The notes under the pieces are model-generated. The model saw only the letters and a program-made list of their open reading frames with translations. It was not told the origin of the DNA and made no database searches. Positions 1 through 31,695 of a DNA stretch of 32,664 nt are shown in pieces; positions within the stretch are counted from its first letter, which is position 1; each line of letters opens with the position of its first letter. Both the position numbers and the translations under genes were made by a program. The stretch is from a virus, in UHGV virus genome UHGV-2169520, one strand, 5' to 3'.

Positions 1-222
1 ATGTTGTTTTCCCTTCGCACCAGCTTTAAAGCCACTCTTGTTAACGATGATGGTACGCCACGGATCACTGCCGAGGTGAGGAATGTGACACCTGATGATA
101 TCGGGAAGGTGGCGGAACTTGTCAGGGATGTTTTTGGTACTCCTTCCGGTACCTGCCGTTCAGACTCTGCGGCCAGGGTTGACAGGCAGGATGTTAACGC
201 CGGGTGGCTTACGCGCCTCTGA
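1..222 (+). CDS. 3' end of an ORF entering from the left edge; product unknown, possibly host gene flanking the prophage junction
   Basis: Frame open from position 1 to TGA 220-222, followed by hairpin 233-247; start not in window; no motif recognised. Confidence 0.25.
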   Translation: MLFSLRTSFKATLVNDDGTPRITAEVRNVTPDDIGKVAELVRDVFGTPSGTCRSDSAARVDRQDVNAGWLTRL

Positions 223-324
223 ATGATGATGCCCTCACTGGTGAGGGTGACAAAAAAGCCCTCTCAATGGCGGGCAAATCTGGTTTTTTGTTTTGTCTCT
301 ACAGGGAAAGGGCGCCATATCGGC

Positions 325-724
325 CCACCCCAACAACCGGATAGCGGGGAATTTCTCCCCCGCTGCGGTTTCTTACGGTTTACACTGCAAGAACGCCGCA
401 AAACGCGCTCCCCAGATATCAAAGCTGAATTCACATAACGAATCGTGGACCATCCAGATGACCAGGGTTATTGTCAGGCATCAAATGCCAACAATAATCG
501 TTTTTTGCGGTATAGCGCTTGCTCCTTTTACAAAGAGGCGCTAACCTTCCACTTGTCACGGTAGGAAGGGTCAGGCCTCGGTTAAACACAGATGTTTTCC
601 GGGGCCTTTCCACATCCGGCCTTCAGGTTTTCCCTCCGGCCATCAGCCGAAAGGCACCCGTTTCTTTTTGTTGCGGCAATATTTCAGGTGTCAGTTGGGG
701 TGGGCTGTATCTTGTCTGATGCAT
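325..724. repeat. Copy 1 of a ~400-bp structured non-coding element (copy 2 at 2333-2745)
   Basis: Alignable with 2333-2745; 3' ~230 bp nearly identical, 5' part diverged; hairpin 343-364 kept by compensatory changes; substitutions in embedded ORFs show no third-position bias. Confidence 0.6.
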
Positions 725-821
725 AAAAAAATGCCCGCGCTTTGGCGGGCAAAAGACAAGACTTTTCGTTTGTATATCATGGATAATGGACACCCTTCCT
801 GTTGTCAGGTGGCAGGCACCC
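725..821 (-). ncRNA. Candidate small RNA unit B1 (body class alpha)
   Basis: Minus-strand -35 TTGAGA (851-856), 17-bp spacer, -10 TAGATT (828-833); terminator GCCCGCC..GGCGGGC plus U7 (725-750); predicted ~95 nt; no credible ORF. Confidence 0.35.
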
Positions 822-925
822 GTGGTTAATCTACTGTTTTTGTGCTTTTGTCTCAACCCTGAAGTTTTCATGGAAAATCAGGGTTGCTTCATATGTGCCA
901 GGAAGGTGCGGCTATGATAACTGCC

Positions 926-1018
926 AAAAAAAGCCCGCTTTCCGGCGGGCAAAACAGCAATGTGAGTTGTCTGTCATTGATACTGGACAGCCTTCCTGTT
1001 GTCAGGTGGAAGGTACCC
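926..1018 (-). ncRNA. Candidate small RNA unit B2 (body class beta)
   Basis: -35 TTGAGA (1048-1053), 17-bp spacer, -10 TAGATT (1025-1030); terminator hairpin 933-950 plus U-run (926-932 on plus strand); 5' hairpin CCUUCC..GGAAGG. Confidence 0.35.
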
Positions 1019-1122
1019 GTGGTTAATCTACTGTCTTTGTGCTTTTGTCTCAACCCTGAAGTTTTCATGGAAAATCAGGGTTGCTTCATGTGAACCAGGA
1101 AGGTGAGGCGATGGTAACCGCC

Positions 1123-1148
1123 AAAAAAATGCCCGCTTTCCGGCGGGC
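1123..1148 (-). terminator. Intrinsic terminator, minus strand
   Basis: Hairpin GCCCGCTTTCCGGCGGGC 1131-1148 preceded on plus strand by A7 (U-tract on minus strand). Confidence 0.6.
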
Positions 1149-1369
1149 AAAACAAGGAAGTACGGATCATGTATTATTGATTACGAGGCATTCCACCATG
1201 CCCACGTTTAATTTAGCTAGTTTTCATTTTATTCACAATATAGTTACTTATCATATTTATGAACAAAACTGTAATTTCATCTATAGGTATAAGTGATTTG
1301 CATTAACATGTTTCTTCTGTATTGCTGTTGGTTTTCCGATGCTGATATTTATGATACATTCAAGGGCAA

Positions 1370-1575
1370 ATGAGGTTGTTCCACAGAAACGATGTTGAGA
1401 TATTTCTGCTCCAGAAAGGACAAGCTAAAAAAATAAAGTGATATTATGATATGTCAGGGATGTTCAGGCATGTCAGTGTCTTATTAATAAACTCGTTGCT
1501 GCTGTAATAACACCAAAAAAATCAAAGCATAATCTGCATGTTGTTCCTGATGACCCAATAACCACAAAAGAATAA
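1370..1575 (+). pseudogene. Decayed copy of the 71-codon ORF family (intact copy at 3197-3412)
   Basis: ATG 1370 opens MRLFHRNDVEI then frame breaks (stop after 23 codons); C-terminal homologous segment ..RDVQACQCLI..HVVPDDPITTKE present out of frame; same flanking AT-rich region and terminator as the intact copy. Confidence 0.55.
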
Positions 1576-1668
1576 AAAAAATGCCCGCTTTCCGGCGGGC
1601 AAAACAGCAATGTGAGTTGTCTGTCATTGATACTGGACACCCTTCCTGTTGTCAGGTGGAAGGCACCC
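1574..1668 (-). ncRNA. Candidate small RNA unit B3 (body class beta)
   Basis: -35 TTGAGC (1698-1703), 17-bp spacer, -10 TAGATT (1675-1680); terminator hairpin 1583-1600 plus U-run. Confidence 0.35.
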
Positions 1669-1772
1669 GTGGTTAATCTACTGTCTTTGTGCTTTTGGCT
1701 CAACCCTGAAGTTTTCATGGAAAATCAGGGCTGCTTTGTGTGCGCCAGGGAAGGCGCCTCGATGGCAGGCGC

Positions 1773-1799
1773 AAAAAAAATGCCCGTGCTTCGGCGGGC
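1773..1799 (-). terminator. Intrinsic terminator, minus strand
   Basis: Hairpin 1782-1799 (one mismatch) preceded on plus strand by A8. Confidence 0.5.
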
Positions 1800-2026
1800 A
1801 AAATAAGGAAGTACAGGTTACATGTTATTGATAAAGTAGCATTGCTCTGTCCGTCTTTAATCTAACGAGTTTTGAGTTTTTTCACAATATTGTTACCTGT
1901 CATGTTATAGATGAAACTGCAATTTCATCTATAGGTATAAATGATTTGTATTAATGTGTGTCCACTGTTTGTCTGCTTTCTGGTTTTCAGTTGACTGTGT
2001 TTCTGATGAATTCAGGAGGTTGTCTT

Positions 2027-2125
2027 ATGAGGCTGTTCCACAGAAACGATATTGAGATTGAACTGCATTTCTCCTCCGGTGAGGATAAGGTTAAATCATT
2101 GTTGATGAAAAAAACAAAGATTTAA
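2027..2125 (+). pseudogene. Truncated copy (32 codons) of the 71-codon ORF family
   Basis: Strong SD AGGAGG 8 nt before ATG 2027; first 24 codons near-identical to 3197-3268 (2 of 3 differences synonymous) then divergence and early stop. Confidence 0.5.
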
Positions 2126-2194
2126 TTTATTGATATAAAGGATTTGTATCAGCGTATGTCCACGCAGTGACCACATTTTCGAGAGGTAGAGTAA

Positions 2195-2220
2195 GCCCGC
2201 AACATTGCGGGCTTTGTCTT
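2195..2220 (+). terminator. Intrinsic terminator, plus strand
   Basis: Hairpin GCCCGCAACATTGCGGGC 2195-2212 followed by TTTGTCTT. Confidence 0.6.
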
Positions 2221-2264
2221 ATAGTCTGATCACTGTTTCAAGTCGGTGAGGACACCAAAAAGAA

Positions 2265-2298
2265 AACCCGCAGTTTTTATGCTGCGGGTTTGTTTGTT
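2265..2298. terminator. Bidirectional hairpin terminator
   Basis: AACCCGCAG..CTGCGGGTT hairpin 2265-2290 with T-rich tract after it on the plus strand and U-rich tract after it on the minus strand. Confidence 0.5.
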
Positions 2299-2332
2299 CA
2301 TGTCTGTGAGATAGGGTGCCTTATCGACCTTA

Positions 2333-2745
2333 CCCTGGCAACCGATTGACGGGGGATTGCTCCCCCGTCGCGGTTTCCTTACTTCTTACATTGTAAGAAC
2401 GCCGCAAACTCCGCTCCCCAGAAGCTCATCCGTATTTCGCACAGCGAACCGTGCAATATCCAGATGATGAGGATTGCCGTCACGCAGAACGTGATGGCCG
2501 TAAGCGATTTTTGCGACATAGCACTTGCTCCTTTTCCGGAGAGGCGCTAACCTTTCACTTGTCAAGGTAATGCGGTTAGGGCCTCGGTTAAACAGAAATG
2601 TTTTCCGGGGCCTTTCCACATCCGGCCTTCAGGTTTTCCCTCCGGCCATCAGCCGAAAGGCACCCGCGCGTAATTTAACTGTTTCTTTTTGTTGCGGCAA
2701 TATTTCAGGTGTCAGTTGGGGTGGGCTGTATCTTGTCTGATGCAT
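2333..2745. repeat. Copy 2 of the ~400-bp structured non-coding element
   Basis: Alignable with 325-724; hairpin 2348-2369 GACGGGGGA-TTGC-TCCCCCGTC; 15-bp insertion relative to copy 1. Confidence 0.6.
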
Positions 2746-2841
2746 AAAAAAATGCCCGCGCTTCGGCGGGCAAAAAACAAGACTTTTCGTTTGTATATCA
2801 TGGATAATGGACACCCTTCCTGTTGTCAGGGGGAGGTACCC
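2746..2841 (-). ncRNA. Candidate small RNA unit B4 (body class alpha)
   Basis: -35 TTGAGC (2871-2876), 17-bp spacer, -10 TAGATT (2848-2853); terminator hairpin 2754-2771 plus U-run. Confidence 0.35.
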
Positions 2842-2945
2842 GTAGCTAATCTACTCACTTTGTGCCCGCAGCTCAACCCTGAAGTTTTCATGGAAAATCA
2901 GGGCTGCTTTGTGTGCGCCAGGGAAGGCGCCTCGATGGCAGGCGC

Positions 2946-2972
2946 AAAAAAAATGCCCGCTCTCCGGCGGGC
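2946..2972 (-). terminator. Intrinsic terminator, minus strand
   Basis: Hairpin GCCCGCTCTCCGGCGGGC 2955-2972 preceded on plus strand by A8. Confidence 0.6.
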
Positions 2973-3196
2973 AAAACAATGATCTACGTCACATTATATT
3001 GATAACCGGGCATTCCTCCATGCCCATTTTTAATTTAGCCATTTTTCATTTTGTTCACAATATAGTTATCTATCATATTCATGAATGAAATTATAATTTC
3101 ATCTATAGGTATAAATGATTTGTGTTAATATGTTTCTCCTGTCTAACTGTTTTCTCATTTTTCGATACTAGTATTTCTGATATATTCAGGGGGCGT

Positions 3197-3412
3197 ATGA
3201 GATTGTTCCGAAGAAACGATATTGAGATTGAACTGCATTTCTCCTCCGGTGAGGATAAGGTTAAATCAATAAAGGTGAAACTAAGACATGCCCGGGATGT
3301 TCAGGCGTGTCAGTGTCTTATTGATGAACTCGTTGCTGCCGGAGGAACGCCAAAAAAACAAAAATATAATCTGCACGTGGTTCCTGATGACCCCATAACC
3401 ACAAAAGAATAA
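3197..3412 (+). CDS. Small hydrophilic protein (71 aa), function unknown; only intact member of a three-copy family
   Basis: ATG 3197 with G-rich SD; MRLFRRNDIEIELHFSSGEDKVKSIKVKL..; convergent with ogr; AT-rich upstream region with conserved hairpin 3008-3036. Confidence 0.6.
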   Translation: MRLFRRNDIEIELHFSSGEDKVKSIKVKLRHARDVQACQCLIDELVAAGGTPKKQKYNLHVVPDDPITTKE

Positions 3413-3505
3413 AAAAATGCCCGCTTTCCGGCGGGCAAAAAACAATTTAGGTCATATTTCATCATGGATAATTAAATACTTGCCCGTGGTTGCGGGAAAG
3501 TATCT
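3411..3505 (-). ncRNA. Candidate small RNA unit B5 (body class gamma), immediately downstream of ogr
   Basis: -35 TTGAGA (3535-3540) starts 15 bp after ogr stop; 17-bp spacer; -10 TAGATT (3512-3517); terminator hairpin 3419-3436 plus U7; also the likely terminator for ogr. Confidence 0.35.
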
Positions 3506-3554
3506 GCCGTTAATCTACTTGCCTTATGATGTCCTCTCAACCTGATTATTGTTC

Positions 3555-3806
3555 TTAAATATCAAGATTAATCTGAGTATTCCCCCTGTGAGATCCCGGA
3601 AAATCTTCCCACGGTATCCGCTCTGTACCCTGCGGCGACGGGGCGCGTTTTGATGTGAATTTGTTAAAACCCTCCAGTGTGGTAAAGCCGATCCCGCATT
3701 CGAGGTTATTGCACTGGTAGTACTTCAGGCGAACTGTGCCTGAATCATTTTCATTGCGACTGGTGCGGATACGTGCGGATGCACCGCATAGGGGACAACG
3801 GAACAT
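3555..3806 (-). CDS. ogr: Ogr/Delta-family zinc-finger late-gene activator
   Basis: MFRCPLCGASARIRTSR...YYQCNNLECG: C-x2-C...C-x4-C zinc finger matching P2 Ogr; SD AGGAGA 4 nt before ATG. Confidence 0.9.
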   Translation of the reverse strand: MFRCPLCGASARIRTSRNENDSGTVRLKYYQCNNLECGIGFTTLEGFNKFTSKRAPSPQGTERIPWEDFPGSHRGNTQINLDI

Positions 3807-3849
3807 GGCTTCTCCTTATCTGGCTGAGTGGAGATGGCTCATTTTAATT

Positions 3850-4941
3850 TTATCCGCCTGAATCTGCTATCCATTCGGGGATTTTCGCTTCCAGCTCCAG
3901 TTGTGTGGTGAAGCCGCTTTCATCTATGATGTGCTCCACCCTGGCAATAATCCAGTCCTGATTGTCCACCTCGCTTTTAAAACCTGTTACCCTGCCGTGC
4001 ATTTCGGGGTACAGGTCGGCACGACCCCGTGCCAGAGTGATGGAGAATGCCGCTGCTCCCCGCTGTAACTCCTGCCACTTTGCCGCAGCTGCACGTCGTG
4101 CGGTTTCTTCATTCTGGTAAGTCCTGCGCAGAACGTAGACGTTCCCTTCCGCGCCTTCCATGTAATCACCCTCCCGGCTGCTGCTCTTCTCCTGTTTCTG
4201 TTTCCCGGCTTCCCTGCGTCGCTTCACGTTCACTTTTTTCTTTTGCCCGAACTTCAGATCGAGCCAGTGCGCCCGGACCCCCGTATACGCATCACGGTCA
4301 GCAATGCGAAAGCGGTGACTGTCGCCGCTGCTGCGGGTAATGGCGAACGAAGGCAGGGCTCTTCCGTCCGGCCCGGTTCCGCCACCCGGCAGAATGAATA
4401 ACAGGCTGCCGTTTTTTACGGTGGCAATCGCACCCAGCATTTCAGCCATGCGGGTCAGGAAGGATATATCGCTCTCTTCGGTCTGGTCAGCGTGGTCAAT
4501 TTCGATATCCATGAGGATTTCGCTTATCTGTGTCTTCAGGCCGTAGCGGTGAGCGATGGCTGACACAACCTGTTTTACGGTCACGTCGTGCCAGGATACC
4601 TCCCGCCTCACGTTGAACTCTTCCCGAAAATCTGCGCTGCTGGCGGTGATGATCAGTTTATCTGGAGGTCCTTCCCACGCAACCTCATCAACGACGTAGG
4701 TGCCCTTGTTAACCAGTGATTCTCCTCGCCAGCCAATCATCACTCTCAGGCGTGCGCCACGTGGTGGCAACTGTAACTGCCCGTCCGTATCGTCAAGGGT
4801 GAGGGTGACGCGGTCTGCCTCAAAGGCCCGGTTATCCGTCAGGGTCAGCGTCATGAGTCGCTCTGTGAGGTTTGCCAGTGTGTTGTTGTTGATGGTGATG
4901 TCGATATCCGGTGACGGAACGGTAACTGACAGCTCTTTCAT
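3850..4941 (-). CDS. D: Tail protein D
   Basis: P2 gpD-like over full length; start set at ATG 4941 (SD AGGAGAG) rather than the ORF-track start 4977, which lacks an SD. Confidence 0.85.
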   Translation of the reverse strand: MKELSVTVPSPDIDITINNNTLANLTERLMTLTLTDNRAFEADRVTLTLDDTDGQLQLPPRGARLRVMIGWRGESLVNKGTYVVDEVAWEGPPDKLIITASSADFREEFNVRREVSWHDVTVKQVVSAIAHRYGLKTQISEILMDIEIDHADQTEESDISFLTRMAEMLGAIATVKNGSLLFILPGGGTGPDGRALPSFAITRSSGDSHRFRIADRDAYTGVRAHWLDLKFGQKKKVNVKRRREAGKQKQEKSSSREGDYMEGAEGNVYVLRRTYQNEETARRAAAAKWQELQRGAAAFSITLARGRADLYPEMHGRVTGFKSEVDNQDWIIARVEHIIDESGFTTQLELEAKIPEWIADSGG

Positions 4942-5005
4942 GGTGTTCTCTCCTGGTGCGTTCTGTAATGGTTTCATGCACCGTAGCGGCGTTGAATGGC
5001 TGTTT

Positions 5006-7317: not shown

Positions 7318-7481
7318 TAACCGTCGTGCCCTTTGAGCACATTGAAGACTTTGTGGCGGATATCGCCGTTATTTTCAACTGGTCTCCCGCTGAAATCTTC
7401 CTGATGGATCCCGGCGAGGTGGTCGCCTGGCGTGAGCGGGCGGCCCTTCGCAGCGGGAACGCAGAGCATGAAAACGCTTGA
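6955..7481 (+). CDS. E+E-prime fusion made by -1 frameshift at TTTTTTG (7263-7269)
   Basis: The -1 frame after the slippery heptamer stays open to TGA 7479-7481, overlapping the start of T, as in P2. Confidence 0.6.
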
Positions 7482-10400
7482 TATACGGGTCGCCTTCAGC
7501 GCTGTTGACAGGCTGACCCGTCCCACCGAAAACGCCCGTCGCATGATGGGCCAGCTTGGCGACTCCATACAGAGAACGCAGGGTGCGATCAAAAACCTGG
7601 AACGCCACGCCCGTTCATTTGATCGCGCCCGCGAGGCTGCAAACAAGGCCGGAAACGGCATTGTCAGGGCGCAACGCCAGTTAAGCGCACTTCAGCAAAT
7701 TCAGCGCGCCGGAACCGTGCTGTCTGACAAACAGAAAAAGCTGATGAATGATTTGAGCCTCAAACTTGAGCGTCTCAATGAGGTCCGTGCGCGTGAAGTT
7801 CAGCGAATGCGCGAACTGGGTGGTGAGCTGCGGCGCCACGGTATTGCGCTTTCCGGCAGTGACAACACCATTCAACAGGCCATACGGCGAACACAGCAAT
7901 ACAACGACCAGCTGGAACGCGAACGGCAGGCGCTGGCACGTGTCACGCAGGCACGCCAGCAATATTCCCGTGCTCAGGAGACGGCGGGAAAACTTAAAAC
8001 GGTCGGACTTACGGCGGTTGGTACGGCGGCGGCAGGCGGCTATGCGGCCGGACGTTTCCTGCAACCGGCGGTCAGTTTTGGTAAGGAGATGTCGCGCGTC
8101 CAGGCGCTGACCCGTATTGACAAAAACAGTCCGCAGTTTAAGGCGCTGCGCGAACAGGCCATTAAGCTGGGCTCTGAAACGCAGTTTACCGCCGGTGATG
8201 CTGCCAGCGGTCAGGCGTTCCTTGCCATGGCCGGCTTCACACCACAGGCCATACAGGCGGCGCTACCCGGCGTGCTTGATCTGGCAATGGCTGCAGGGAT
8301 GGACCTGGGACAGACTGCCGATATCAGTTCGAATATCCTCACACAGTTTGGTCTGTCCGCTGACCAGATGGATCGCGTGGGTGACACGCTGGCCGCCACC
8401 TTCACACGAACCAATACGGATCTCCGTTCGCTGGGTGAAACCATGAAGTACACGGGGCCGGTTGCAGCTTCACTTGGCCTGTCCCTTGAACAGGCGGCAG
8501 CCATGACGGGTGTCCTTGGCAGTGTGGGGATCCGTGGAAGTGATGCAGGTACGGCGCTGCGTGCCAGTCTGTCACGTCTGGTTGATCCGCCGAAGGCCGC
8601 TGCAATGGCACTGAAAGAGCTTGGCGTGGAGACGCAGGATGCTTACGGGAACATGCGCCGGATGGAAAATATCCTGAATGAGCTGTACCAGGCCACCCGA
8701 AAATACGGTAATGCCGCGCAGGTCTCCTTTTTCAGGGCTATTGCCGGGCAGGAGTCCTATGTTTCCCTGATGAATCTTGTCACTGCGGCGGGGGAAAATA
8801 ATCTTCCCCGTCTTACGCAGGAGATTGAACTGGCCACCGGGGAACTTAATCAGACTGCCCGTGTTATGGCTGATAACCTGGACGGTGACCTGAAATCACT
8901 GAACAGCGCATGGGAAGGACTGCGTATCCGTGTCGCTGACCTCGTTGACGGGCCGCTGCGTTCTGTCACGCAGTCGTTCACCCGGGTTATTGCGAAAGTC
9001 ACCGCGCTGGCTCAGGCGCACCCTGAACTGACAAAACAACTGCTGATTGCCGGTGGTGTACTGCTGGCTGCGGTTGCGGCCATGGGGGCGCTGTCACTTG
9101 CCACTGGTGTGTTGATGGGGCCGCTGGCAAAACTGCGTCTTGGGTTTGCCCTGCTGACCGGCACATCCGGCCTCGGTCGTGCGCTGCCGTTACTGACGCA
9201 GCTGCGCGGCGTACTCGGTGGTCCGCTGGGCGGTATCGGTGGCTGGCGCGTGCTGTTTGTCGGTATCACCTCCGGTGCCGGACGGTTTGCTGCACTGCTG
9301 GGCGTAGTTGCGGGGCGGCTTCGTGGTGTGCAGGCGGGACTTGGCGCGCTGCGTGGTGGTCTGCTGGCTGCGTTCACTTCACCTGGCGGCGCACTGATTT
9401 CACTGGGGCGCGGTATCGGAATACTGGCGCTCAGACTGTCAGGTCTGCCCGCACTGTGGGGGATGGTGAGTGGTGCGGTGGGCGCACTTGGCGGGGCGCT
9501 GGGTTTTCTGTTAAGTCCGGTGGGCCTTGTGGTGGCGACACTGGTCGGTGCGGCAGTGCTTATCTGGCGGCACTGGGACCATTGTTTGAGTATGTCGGGC
9601 AGACAATCGGGCGTGTGTGGCAGTGGTTCGTGGATTTGTTCGCGCCGGTAAGCACAACAAAGGATGAGCTGGACAAGTGCACGGAAGCCGGGCGGACGTT
9701 CGGGCAGAAGGTCGGGGAGTTTATCAGCAATCTGGTGACCGGTCCGGTTACGCTGCTGATTGACTCATTAACCCGGGTGCTGGAAAAACTCGGGCTGATT
9801 CCGTCAGCGGTTGAGCGCGCCCGGAAAAAAGCGGAAGAACTAAAACAGAAGGAGTTGCTGAACGAGAAAGCTGCCATGCTTCTGGCGGATGTTAACGTCA
9901 TTAATCCGCCGAAAAAGGACGAGGATAAAAAAGACGGCGAAAAACCCAAAGGGGGGCAACCACCCCTGACGGGGGAGAATACCGGCACTATGCGCCGCCT
10001 GAACAAAATCGTCGATAACACCGGTGGTCTGCTGGATGAGGCGAAACAGGCGAAAAAACGCGCTGGTCCCGGCGATATTATCTTTAAAAACCTGCCGGAA
10101 GCGCTGGCCGTTCGTGGTGAGTGGAAGGAGGAACGCTTTAACCGCGCAGCTTCCCTGTTACCGGGTAGTGTCAGTGAGCCACCTGTCAGACTGCCGCAGG
10201 TGCCGTCGGTCAGTGTGCCTTCGTTGCCACCGCTGCCAGCGCCACCGCCTGTCAGTGTTTCGCCGCTGATATCCACCACGGCGAACGTGTCGCCGGTCGT
10301 GAAGCCGGTGGTGTCCGTGAATAATGTGCCGGTTATTCCTCCGGTCGTCCGTCCGGTACTGTCCGGTAATATTACGCCAGTGGTTCCGCCGGTGATCAAA

Positions 10401-10694
10401 CCGGTTATGACTCACGATGTCATGCCGACGTTCTCCCCGCTAATGACACCAGTGATGGCGGCAACATCCCGTCCGGTGGTTGAGGCTGTGCGCCAGCCCA
10501 TATCCCCCGCATCGCCCCGACCGCGCCAGAGTGAGGCGGCACCATGGGGATTAACTGGCGAACTGCATATTCACCTGCATGATGTTCACACGCAAAACCC
10601 GCGCGAACTGGCAAAAATGGTGGGTGATGCCGTCCGTGCGGAAATGGAACGCCGTATCCGCCAGACAGTCGGTAGTTTCCGTGACAGAGATTAG
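7468..10694 (+). CDS. T: Tail tape measure protein; reading frame broken near 9566-9572 (possible pseudogene or sequencing indel)
   Basis: P2 gpT-like coiled N-terminal half and Gly/Ala/Leu-rich segment; two overlapping ORFs (7432-9651 frame 1, 9456-10694 frame 3); protein sense switches at ..AAVLIW / ALGPLFEYVGQ. Confidence 0.85.
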
Positions 10695-31419: not shown

Positions 31420-31459
31420 AGGTTGCAATTCTGGGTGGCGAGACGTACAGGGTTGCAAC
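31420..31459. promoter_or_regulatory. Palindromic GGTTGCAA motifs upstream of the early operon (candidate operators)
   Basis: CCAGA-GGTTGCAAT-TCTGG at 31415-31433 and perfect palindrome GGTTGCAACC at 31450-31459, 30 bp apart; third GGTTGCAA at 31597-31604. Confidence 0.4.
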
Positions 31460-31553
31460 CACCGGCAAACGAAGAAACCGGCCCGACCGAAGTCGGCCCC
31501 GTACGCCCCACCATAATTCTGGTGCGAAAAAGACGTGGCGATACGGTACGCAC

Positions 31554-31573
31554 AAAAAAACCGCTGGCGCGGT
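31554..31573 (-). terminator. Intrinsic terminator, minus strand, downstream of the HTH-protein gene
   Basis: Hairpin ACCGC-TGGC-GCGGT (31560-31573) preceded on plus strand by A7. Confidence 0.55.
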
Positions 31574-31695
31574 TGTGCGCTTCGTTTGTCAGCGGGGGTT
31601 GCAATCCCGGCACCCGTTTTATGAGGTGCAGCGGAAATGTAACCTGACTGATTGCGGCATGGCAAGCGGTTTTTTTGTGTGTGCATAGTGGTTAC

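Follow-up and report, generated by a model that had tools for sequence, protein, structure and literature searches.

P2-type integrases use terminator-like attachment cores and can also use secondary sites. In Escherichia coli K-12, the ogrK–yegZ remnant beside cyaR is the ogr-side end of a P2-like phage that has survived as a relic. Phages P88 and Chuche (Xuanwuvirus) share the backbone genes ogr and D with the locus described here and, like it, carry hok/sok in the slot between attP and ogr, with or without a methyltransferase gene. Here we analyse this slot in the viral genome UHGV-2169520 (32,664 nucleotides (nt), the whole stretch analysed, hereafter ‘the window’), where a small open reading frame (ORF) occurs three times, at 1370–1575 (copy 1), from 2027 (copy 2) and at 3197–3412 (copy 3), with only copy 3 still encoding an intact protein of 71 amino acids (aa). 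In contrast to the slots of P88 and Chuche, which contain neither this ORF nor the putative small RNA (sRNA) units that accompany it (U units, below), the slot of the window is 3.7 kb long and layered. We propose, with a probability of roughly 0.72, that the array is made of end modules of related phages joined serially to one P2-like prophage, the older copies having decayed. In contrast to the K-12 remnant and to P2 secondary sites, the relics here lie inside a complete prophage, and the secondary site would be a gene of another prophage. The case is one of ordinary, known prophage mosaicism preserved in unusual detail, not a new kind of system; its interest is as a clean sequence-level record of cargo piling up at the end of a temperate phage. 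A literature search returned no paper on this locus.

The limits of the prophage define where the three copies lie. The window is E. coli chromosomal DNA; several isolates from chickens and humans match its first 3900 bases at 100% identity, and in the annotation of one such identical isolate position 1 falls about 205 nt past the serS stop codon. After the cargo come ogr (3555–3806, minus strand), the late-gene activator with which the phage backbone starts, gene D (tail; 3850–4977, minus strand, from annotation) and then the full P2-type tail, head and replication gene set, with the integrase gene (int) about 4.5 kb past the window end, adjoining dmsA. The empty serS–dmsA spacer of K-12 measures just 240 nt. 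Set against this empty site, the lysogen has the core cctgcgggcgctttt, which is the serS terminator, duplicated at the serS and dmsA junctions only: one copy just left of the window (about 190 nt left of position 1) and the other beside int. Paired TGTCCA-type repeats occur on both phage arms, and the attachment arm next to serS is functional-looking. Because the core is duplicated at these outer junctions and cctgcgggcgctttt is absent from the first 3600 bases of the window, all three ORF copies lie inside the insertion, between the attachment arm and ogr. Positions 1–3550 are thus the slot in which one P2-like prophage of P88/Xuanwuvirus type, integrated at the serS terminator, carries its accessory cargo; this cargo sits with the phage backbone between duplicated attachment (att) cores, as expected of P2-like (Peduoviridae) prophage cargo.

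This arrangement bears directly on the sequence-only reading of the locus, which had described only the intact copy as prophage-adjacent and had offered, as an example, repeated integration of related P2-like elements at one site. Repeated P2-like integration at serS, leaving ogr-side ends outside the present prophage, would account for modules that look like phage-end relics and for a decay gradient that runs from the host side towards the prophage. We nevertheless consider it improbable, and already largely refuted, as the serS-type core occurs only at the outer junctions with the copies internal to them, neither a serS-type core nor a serS-type arm separates the modules, and the arm whose signature agrees with that near int is the outermost one, by serS. 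Moreover, the one clear internal arm is of another type (pdxB/flk, see below), and the composite array recurs on the same backbone at a different chromosomal site, zapB.

The three copies belong to homologous modules at approximately 1100–1610, 1750–2230 and 2925–3445, which share 81% mean column identity in a MAFFT alignment. Repeat finding places the N-terminal repeats of the ORF copies at 1364–1401, 2021–2058 and 3191–3228, and longer repeats pair 2026–2110 with 3196–3280 (89%) and 1435–1580 with 3272–3417 (85%). All copies are on the plus strand. Copy 1 (1370–1575) is a pseudogene: it has lost 8 nt at one point and 1 nt at each of two others, and an in-frame TGA interrupts it; copy 2 retains the first 24 codons only (2027–2097), its frame continuing to 2125 through foreign sequence (LLMKKTKI and a stop); and copy 3 (3197–3412), recognized by annotation and by the family profile, is intact and corresponds to the hypothetical protein WP_001236182.1. 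Over the 24 codons shared by copies 2 and 3 there are three differences, of which AGA/AGG and TTG/CTG are synonymous and CGA/CAC replaces arginine with histidine. The regions upstream of the ORFs are AT-rich, at 29.7% GC versus 54.7% for the window. Repeats, alignment and codon comparison thus bear out the initial description of an intact ORF with a frame-broken (1370–1575) and a truncated (2027–2125) paralogue, of mostly synonymous N-terminal differences and of AT-rich upstream regions. A conserved hairpin before, and an sRNA unit after, every copy had also been described; these hold for copies 1 and 3, where the hairpin GGGCAT-N6-ATGCCC is present and U units follow at 1573–1673 and 3409–3510, but not for copy 2, where the hairpin is degenerate and the ORF is followed instead by an attachment-arm relic and then a hok/sok locus. 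Both the U units and the terminators that close them belong to the minus strand and face the ORFs in convergent orientation.

Positions 2098–2238 hold the attachment core TTGTTGATGAAAA and P arm of a second P2-like phage, of pdxB/flk type, as judged from the prophage end in strain M9: window 2099–2222 is 98.4% identical (125 nt) to the very end of the P2-like prophage that lies between flk and pdxB in that strain. Comparison with 5423 genomes without the M9 prophage puts its host/phage boundary within GTGAAAATCCTTGTTGATGAAAA, in the first codons of pdxB. In addition, 2123–2345 matches at 87% the end of a prophage beside ihfA, in which hok and ogr come immediately after the arm. The M9-type core-plus-arm starts exactly where the resemblance between copies 2 and 3 ends, at nt 72 of the ORF, with GGTTAAATCA on the ORF side of the join and TTGTTGATGAAAAAAAC beyond it, so that the last eight ‘codons’ of copy 2 are attachment-site sequence. 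The corresponding target in the uninterrupted ORF, AGGTTAAATCAATAAAGGTGAAACTAAG, agrees with the pdxB site at 16 of 28 positions, including AAATC and TGAAA. As a separate observation on these phages, M9-type insertions lie inside the first codons of pdxB, after GTG AAA ATC CTT GTT GAT GAA AA (L020 3490–3512; L057 390–412), so these phages must bring a replacement 5′ end on the int side.

Tandem duplication and unequal crossing-over within one phage, by way of its terminator repeats and with no second phage involved, would also generate repeated modules. The window contains nine near-identical terminator hairpins and identical flanks such as 1715–1800 and 2888–2975, and exactly such recombination explains one of the variants described below (at zapB). 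Yet duplication cannot yield a junction at ORF nt 72 with a foreign att core and arm that are 98% identical to the end of another phage, and this att-type junction already excludes it for the copy 2/copy 3 pair. The modules, 76–85% diverged, are not recent duplicates, and the two hok/sok copies are only 79% alike. We therefore regard duplication without a second phage as unlikely for the array as a whole.

Alleles in which the ORF is not interrupted also occur. In L056, a metagenome contig with the prophage at serS, and in another contig, L050, the V2/copy-2-type upstream region is followed by an intact ORF, the last U unit (Ue) and ogr, and window 2098–3268 is missing. The missing 1171 bp take in the core and arm, the hok/sok locus that is intact, a single unit, the region upstream of copy 3 and the initial 72 nt of that copy.

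The cargo is also consistently linked to the phage. Of 5426 complete E. coli genomes, 31 have the ORF and the same 31 have the U units, and in every context read the ORF adjoins the ogr of a P2-like prophage; in no prophage-free host among these genomes was the intact ORF seen, in line with what the initial interpretation would expect. Three chromosomal positions are occupied. At serS–dmsA, the full region of the window is present at 99% or greater identity in 26 genomes. At copA (L006, L007), there is one module without hok. At zapB (L008), the core and arm are as in the window and are accompanied by a broken copy 1 and an intact copy 3; this allele equals the window minus approximately 1.17 kb lying between the two identical stretches 1715–1800 and 2888–2975, which indicates that the repeats also drive loss. 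Finding the composite at zapB suggests that it moved to a new site after it had formed and, with the cargo next to ogr at copA and zapB as well, that the cargo travels with the phage. The same cargo and backbone at three chromosomal sites lend indirect support to packaging of the cargo.

Older layers of the array carry fainter versions of the same signature. Relics of a pdxB/flk-type att core and P arm are recognizable upstream of copy 1 (1256–1314; ungapped 59-nt local alignment) and copy 3 (3078–3123; local alignment), and a relic of the P arm upstream of copy 2 (1922–1965; local alignment and repeat finding). Thus, each AT-rich upstream region has 44–59 nt of core-plus-arm homology, with a score reached by 0 of 2000 shuffles. 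In relatives of the small ORF the gene directly follows the arm; given this order and the relic before each copy, the modules look like successive phage-end relics. Decay across the array tracks age. In the older sets, near att, an in-frame stop interrupts hok, frameshifts break copy 1 and copy 2 is cut; hok and the ORF next to ogr are both intact. The original idea of serial acquisition of a terminal module is therefore retained on the strength of the cut in copy 2 at an att core and arm, the intact allele, the arm relics and the decay of older copies; what changes is that acquisition was by joining into the resident prophage and not by re-use of the host site, at least for the one layer whose addition can be resolved.

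The arm-like regions also contain palindromes. A 26-nt palindrome, ATAGATGAAACTGCAATTTCATCTAT, is found at 1907–1932 between a divergent U-like unit (V2, below) and the small ORF, with degenerate equivalents near 1258–1283 and 3080–3105. The attachment arms of related prophages have TGAAATAAA-AGGA-TTTATTTCA-type palindromes at the equivalent position.

The relationships of the encoded protein offer a further comparison. Residues 1–56 of the 71-aa protein match positions 72–127 of the 128 in phrog_14142 (E 4.9e-12, 46.9 bits), which places it in this uncharacterised family of approximately 128-aa proteins from enterobacterial P2-like prophages and P4-like satellites. A profile search returned 28 relatives at E ≤ 0.01, with 35–54% identity, and exhaustive HMMER and profile searches together about 30, from Salmonella, Klebsiella, Yersinia, Citrobacter, Kosakonia, Pantoea, Sodalis and Symbiopectobacterium; the residues conserved across the family follow the pattern M-x-L...E-x-E...K-L-R...D...C...L. 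In 24 of 31 loci the C-terminal domain is accompanied by an N-terminal domain of approximately 71 aa that can be recognized at least in part (near full length in 17), so that the usual family protein has about 128 aa; some gene callers start it at an internal methionine or miss its GTG start. The relatives sit just inside the att arm of P2/HP1-type prophages at raiA, zapB, prpB and ytfP, reading inward, apart from one group in a P4-like satellite downstream of the primase gene; in 13 of the 31 related loci the gene is convergent with ogr or hok.

The window ORF agrees with phrog_14142 in the sequence of its C-terminal domain and in its position between the att arm and ogr/hok, reading inward. 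It differs in lacking the approximately 71-aa N-terminal domain, and hence the full two-domain length, in a 15-aa C-terminal tail not found in the relatives, in its three copies and in the flanking U units that the relatives lack. It begins at the conserved internal methionine of the family, with a GGGGG Shine–Dalgarno sequence of its own, and the frame upstream of it (a 96-aa GTG ORF) has no similarity to the N-terminal domain of the family. The missing domain was also sought in a 73-aa ORF at 1–222 (plus strand; WP_089623492.1), the first gene inside the serS-type attachment arm, but hhalign gave a probability of 0.1%. That ORF is conserved at 93–100% as the first gene inside serS-type and copA-type arms (93% in the copA-site prophage); searches of Pfam, NCBIfam and PADLOC with it were negative, and it does not resemble the small-ORF family. 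A Hok-like type I toxin was rejected as an identity for the small ORF, as its protein is hydrophilic and has no Pfam match, PF01848 being found only in a neighbouring 46-aa ORF. Truncated and frameshifted alleles of the small ORF are present in databases (P0003–P0006). We conclude that the small ORF is a shortened derivative of a real, uncharacterised accessory protein family, and a function for this copy is doubtful; our best guess is that the protein is a dispensable accessory expressed from the prophage, the truncated form of which may already be non-functional.

Two small-ORF relatives lie near AT-rich iteron arrays, GTGAYGG in L009 (7360–7720) and TGTAAT in L011 (7430–7700), bracketed by inverted CGGAAAACC/GGTTTTCCG; one array is at a prophage end and the other is downstream of a P4-like primase gene. 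These arrays may be satellite replication (crr/ori-like) regions.

The following sequence of events would account for the array. End modules of related phages, each consisting of core-like sequence, arm and small ORF, would have been added one after another. In the youngest event, the only one that can be resolved, another P2-like phage, which normally inserts at the 5′ end of pdxB, would have joined its att core and arm to nt 72 of the small ORF of the resident, at a sequence resembling its usual target; the most likely mechanism is integration by the integrase at a secondary site. The two homologous backbones would then have recombined, with the loss of one genome equivalent, and both cargo sets would have been left on a single backbone. 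The incoming set would be the one next to ogr, which is intact (hok/sok copy 2, U unit d, V3, the intact ORF and Ue), and the older, att-side set would be the one that has decayed, through the stop in hok copy 1, the frameshifts in ORF copy 1 and the interruption of ORF copy 2. The terminator repeats of approximately 30 bp would provide homology for further stacking and deletion, as in the zapB variant. The sequences compared show directly how the array is built, where its junction lies, which other alleles exist, that the cargo is linked to the phage and to which family the protein belongs; the part played by the integrase, the succession of events and the way in which copy 1 arose are what we infer from them.

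Several points weigh against this proposal. Neither an intermediate, with two complete prophages in tandem, nor a right-hand junction to match was found, so the role of the integrase is deduced solely from where the junction lies, and joining through microhomology at AAATC would leave an identical trace. The polarity of the alleles could be reversed, as L056 could be a precise deletion between the 72-bp repeats 2027–2098 and 3197–3268. In either case, the join of ORF nt 72 to a phage end stands. For copy 1, the diverged arm-like relics are the only sequences from which an origin by phage-end addition can be argued. Neither the 71-aa nor the 128-aa form had a tblastn match in 50,697 GenBank phage records, and packaging of the cargo is thus not directly seen. 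The 71-aa protein and the long forms match nothing in Pfam, NCBIfam or PADLOC, and the only hit of a sequence-profile search of PDB (E 0.058, to a mitoribosomal protein) we take as noise. AlphaFold2 predicts with moderate confidence a beta-hairpin followed by a helix for the 71-aa form (predicted local distance difference test (pLDDT) score of 67) and reaches a similarly moderate pLDDT of 72 for the long form; neither model has a meaningful structural neighbour.

Five full U units, all on the minus strand, are found at 723–826 (unit a, a putative sRNA of approximately 100 nt; 116.8 bits; promoter TTGAGA-N17-TAGATT at 856–828), 923–1023 (unit b, also a putative sRNA; promoter at 1053–1025), 1573–1673 (unit c), 2744–2846 (unit d) and 3409–3510 (Ue; promoter at 3540–3512). 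A covariance model (the U model) was built from the five. These five full INTERSPERSED units have in common a promoter, TTGAG(A/C)-N17-TAGATT, a 5′ stem-loop, a single-stranded stretch of approximately 35 nt, UUUU and a U-tailed terminator. The single-stranded stretch, or seed, comes in three versions (type 1 in units a and d, type 2 in b and c, and one of its own in Ue), while the UUUU before the terminator hairpin is invariant; in Ue, pairing of the 5′ stem-loop is kept with a different sequence. In all, there are nine near-identical terminator hairpins, AAAAAAATGCCCGCTTTCCGGCGGGCAAAA, in repeats of approximately 30 bp, and eight minus-strand terminators are predicted. The hairpin regions upstream of the ORF copies score 30–42 bits to the U model, which suggests that the ‘conserved hairpin’ regions are degenerate U-like units divergent from the ORFs: V1 (1121–1208, minus strand; 39.7 bits), the hairpin of copy 1, with a terminator and the 5′ hairpin GGGCATGGTGGAATGCC; V2 (1772–1850, minus strand; 30.5 bits), upstream of copy 2; and V3 (2945–3031, minus strand; 42.4 bits), with the hairpin GGGCATTCCTCCATGCCC, divergent from the intact ORF.

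Each U unit combines its own promoter with a Rho-independent, U-tailed terminator and a preceding U-rich stretch, and the units look like putative Hfq-type sRNA genes. They resemble the Hfq-type sRNAs of prophages (AgvB/AsxR of O157, IsrK, DicF) in having a sigma-70-like promoter, a stem-loop, a U-rich stretch and a terminator, and differ from them in scoring below Rfam thresholds, in their arrangement as an array and in their three seed types. No Rfam family reached its gathering threshold in 1–4000, the best scores being those of sok, in the hok loci (48 and 46 bits versus 59). Identity with known sRNAs was rejected, as AgvB and RyhB score 18–24 bits against thresholds of 55–56, driven by the terminator. 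As no terminator separates ogr from Ue, that unit could also be the 3′ untranslated region of ogr. The predicted structure has 19 pairs, one with a double-sided change, in an alignment of seven closely related sequences only. No occurrence of the units outside this phage lineage was seen: they turned up in 31 genomes and, when viral and metagenome contigs were scanned with a promoter-to-terminator pattern, in 3 IMG/VR and 5 metagenome contigs. A scan of species-representative genomes with the small-ORF protein profile yielded six relatives, and the U model detected no units at their loci.

It is conceivable that the small protein and its flanking RNAs are a single functional unit, for example a regulator with an antisense partner, maintained in several copies by selection. 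The ORF and the U units are always found together, the terminator of the convergent unit lies directly against the stop codon of the ORF, and a pN/pS of 0.46 between copy 3 and the broken copy 1 points to past constraint. Against this, two of the three copies are broken, the database alleles noted above are truncated or frameshifted, prophages at copA manage with one copy, and the relatives of the protein in other genera have no U units. Nor do the unit seeds and the ORF start region share any complementary stretch of at least 10 nt, and no target of that length lies near a start codon in the window. We accordingly give selection for such a unit very little credence. Pairing of the units with the small ORF, hok or ogr was likewise rejected, complementarity outside the units in the window being at most 12 nt and none of it at a start codon. 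Separately, seed type 1 and Ue share the 12-nt AUUAUCCAUGAU (complement at 776–787, 2797–2808 and 3461–3472), which would pair with AUCAUGGAUAAU, a start-codon-like context that occurs at no gene start in the window.

A more speculative possibility, which we raise tentatively and think rather less likely than not to be correct, is that the five full and three degenerate units represent an undescribed family of phage-borne Hfq-type sRNAs, organized as an array of cassettes in which promoter and terminator are invariant and three seeds can be exchanged. Such an array would let the prophage retune expression of the host, rival phages or satellites, and its terminator repeats might double as recombination joints for stacking and shedding cargo, including the small ORF. 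Both this lineage-restricted array of RNA units, which has no Rfam match, and the family of small proteins found between att and ogr across P2-like prophages of Enterobacterales are uncharacterised and worth a bench test; neither alters the current understanding of prophage evolution.

The remaining cargo consists of two loci of the hok/sok type I toxin–antitoxin system, 79% identical to each other. The first (334–660, minus strand) is degenerate, with an in-frame stop in hok and a match to Rfam sok (RF01794) of 48 bits at 502–659. The second (2320–2670, minus strand) is intact, with a 46-aa hok coding sequence at 2379–2519 (PF01848, E 8e-7), annotated as Hok/Gef, and a sok-like leader (46 bits). 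Both are neighbouring cargo and lie outside the small-ORF family.

Beyond the cargo slot, three features of the prophage and its surroundings deserve mention. The tail tape-measure gene consists of two overlapping plus-strand ORFs (7432–9651 and 9456–10694), and the annotations of all related prophages examined, at serS, copA and zapB, list it as an incomplete pseudogene; this could be a shared defect, or an unrecognised frameshift or insertion. In the early region of the prophage, a C4 antisense RNA (RF01695, 79 bits; 31431–31518, minus strand) lies beside isrK (RF01394, 62 bits; 31554–31629, minus strand), with a gene annotated as ‘derepression protein’ approximately 0.5 kb away; the pair is a P1/P4-type antisense immunity element on a P2-type backbone. 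Finally, the same genome contains a second P2-like prophage (B, cox, C and int; L002 1–2633) next to pflA, approximately 9 kb beyond dmsABC, and dmsABC–ycaC–ycaD–ycaM is thus bracketed by two P2-type prophages.

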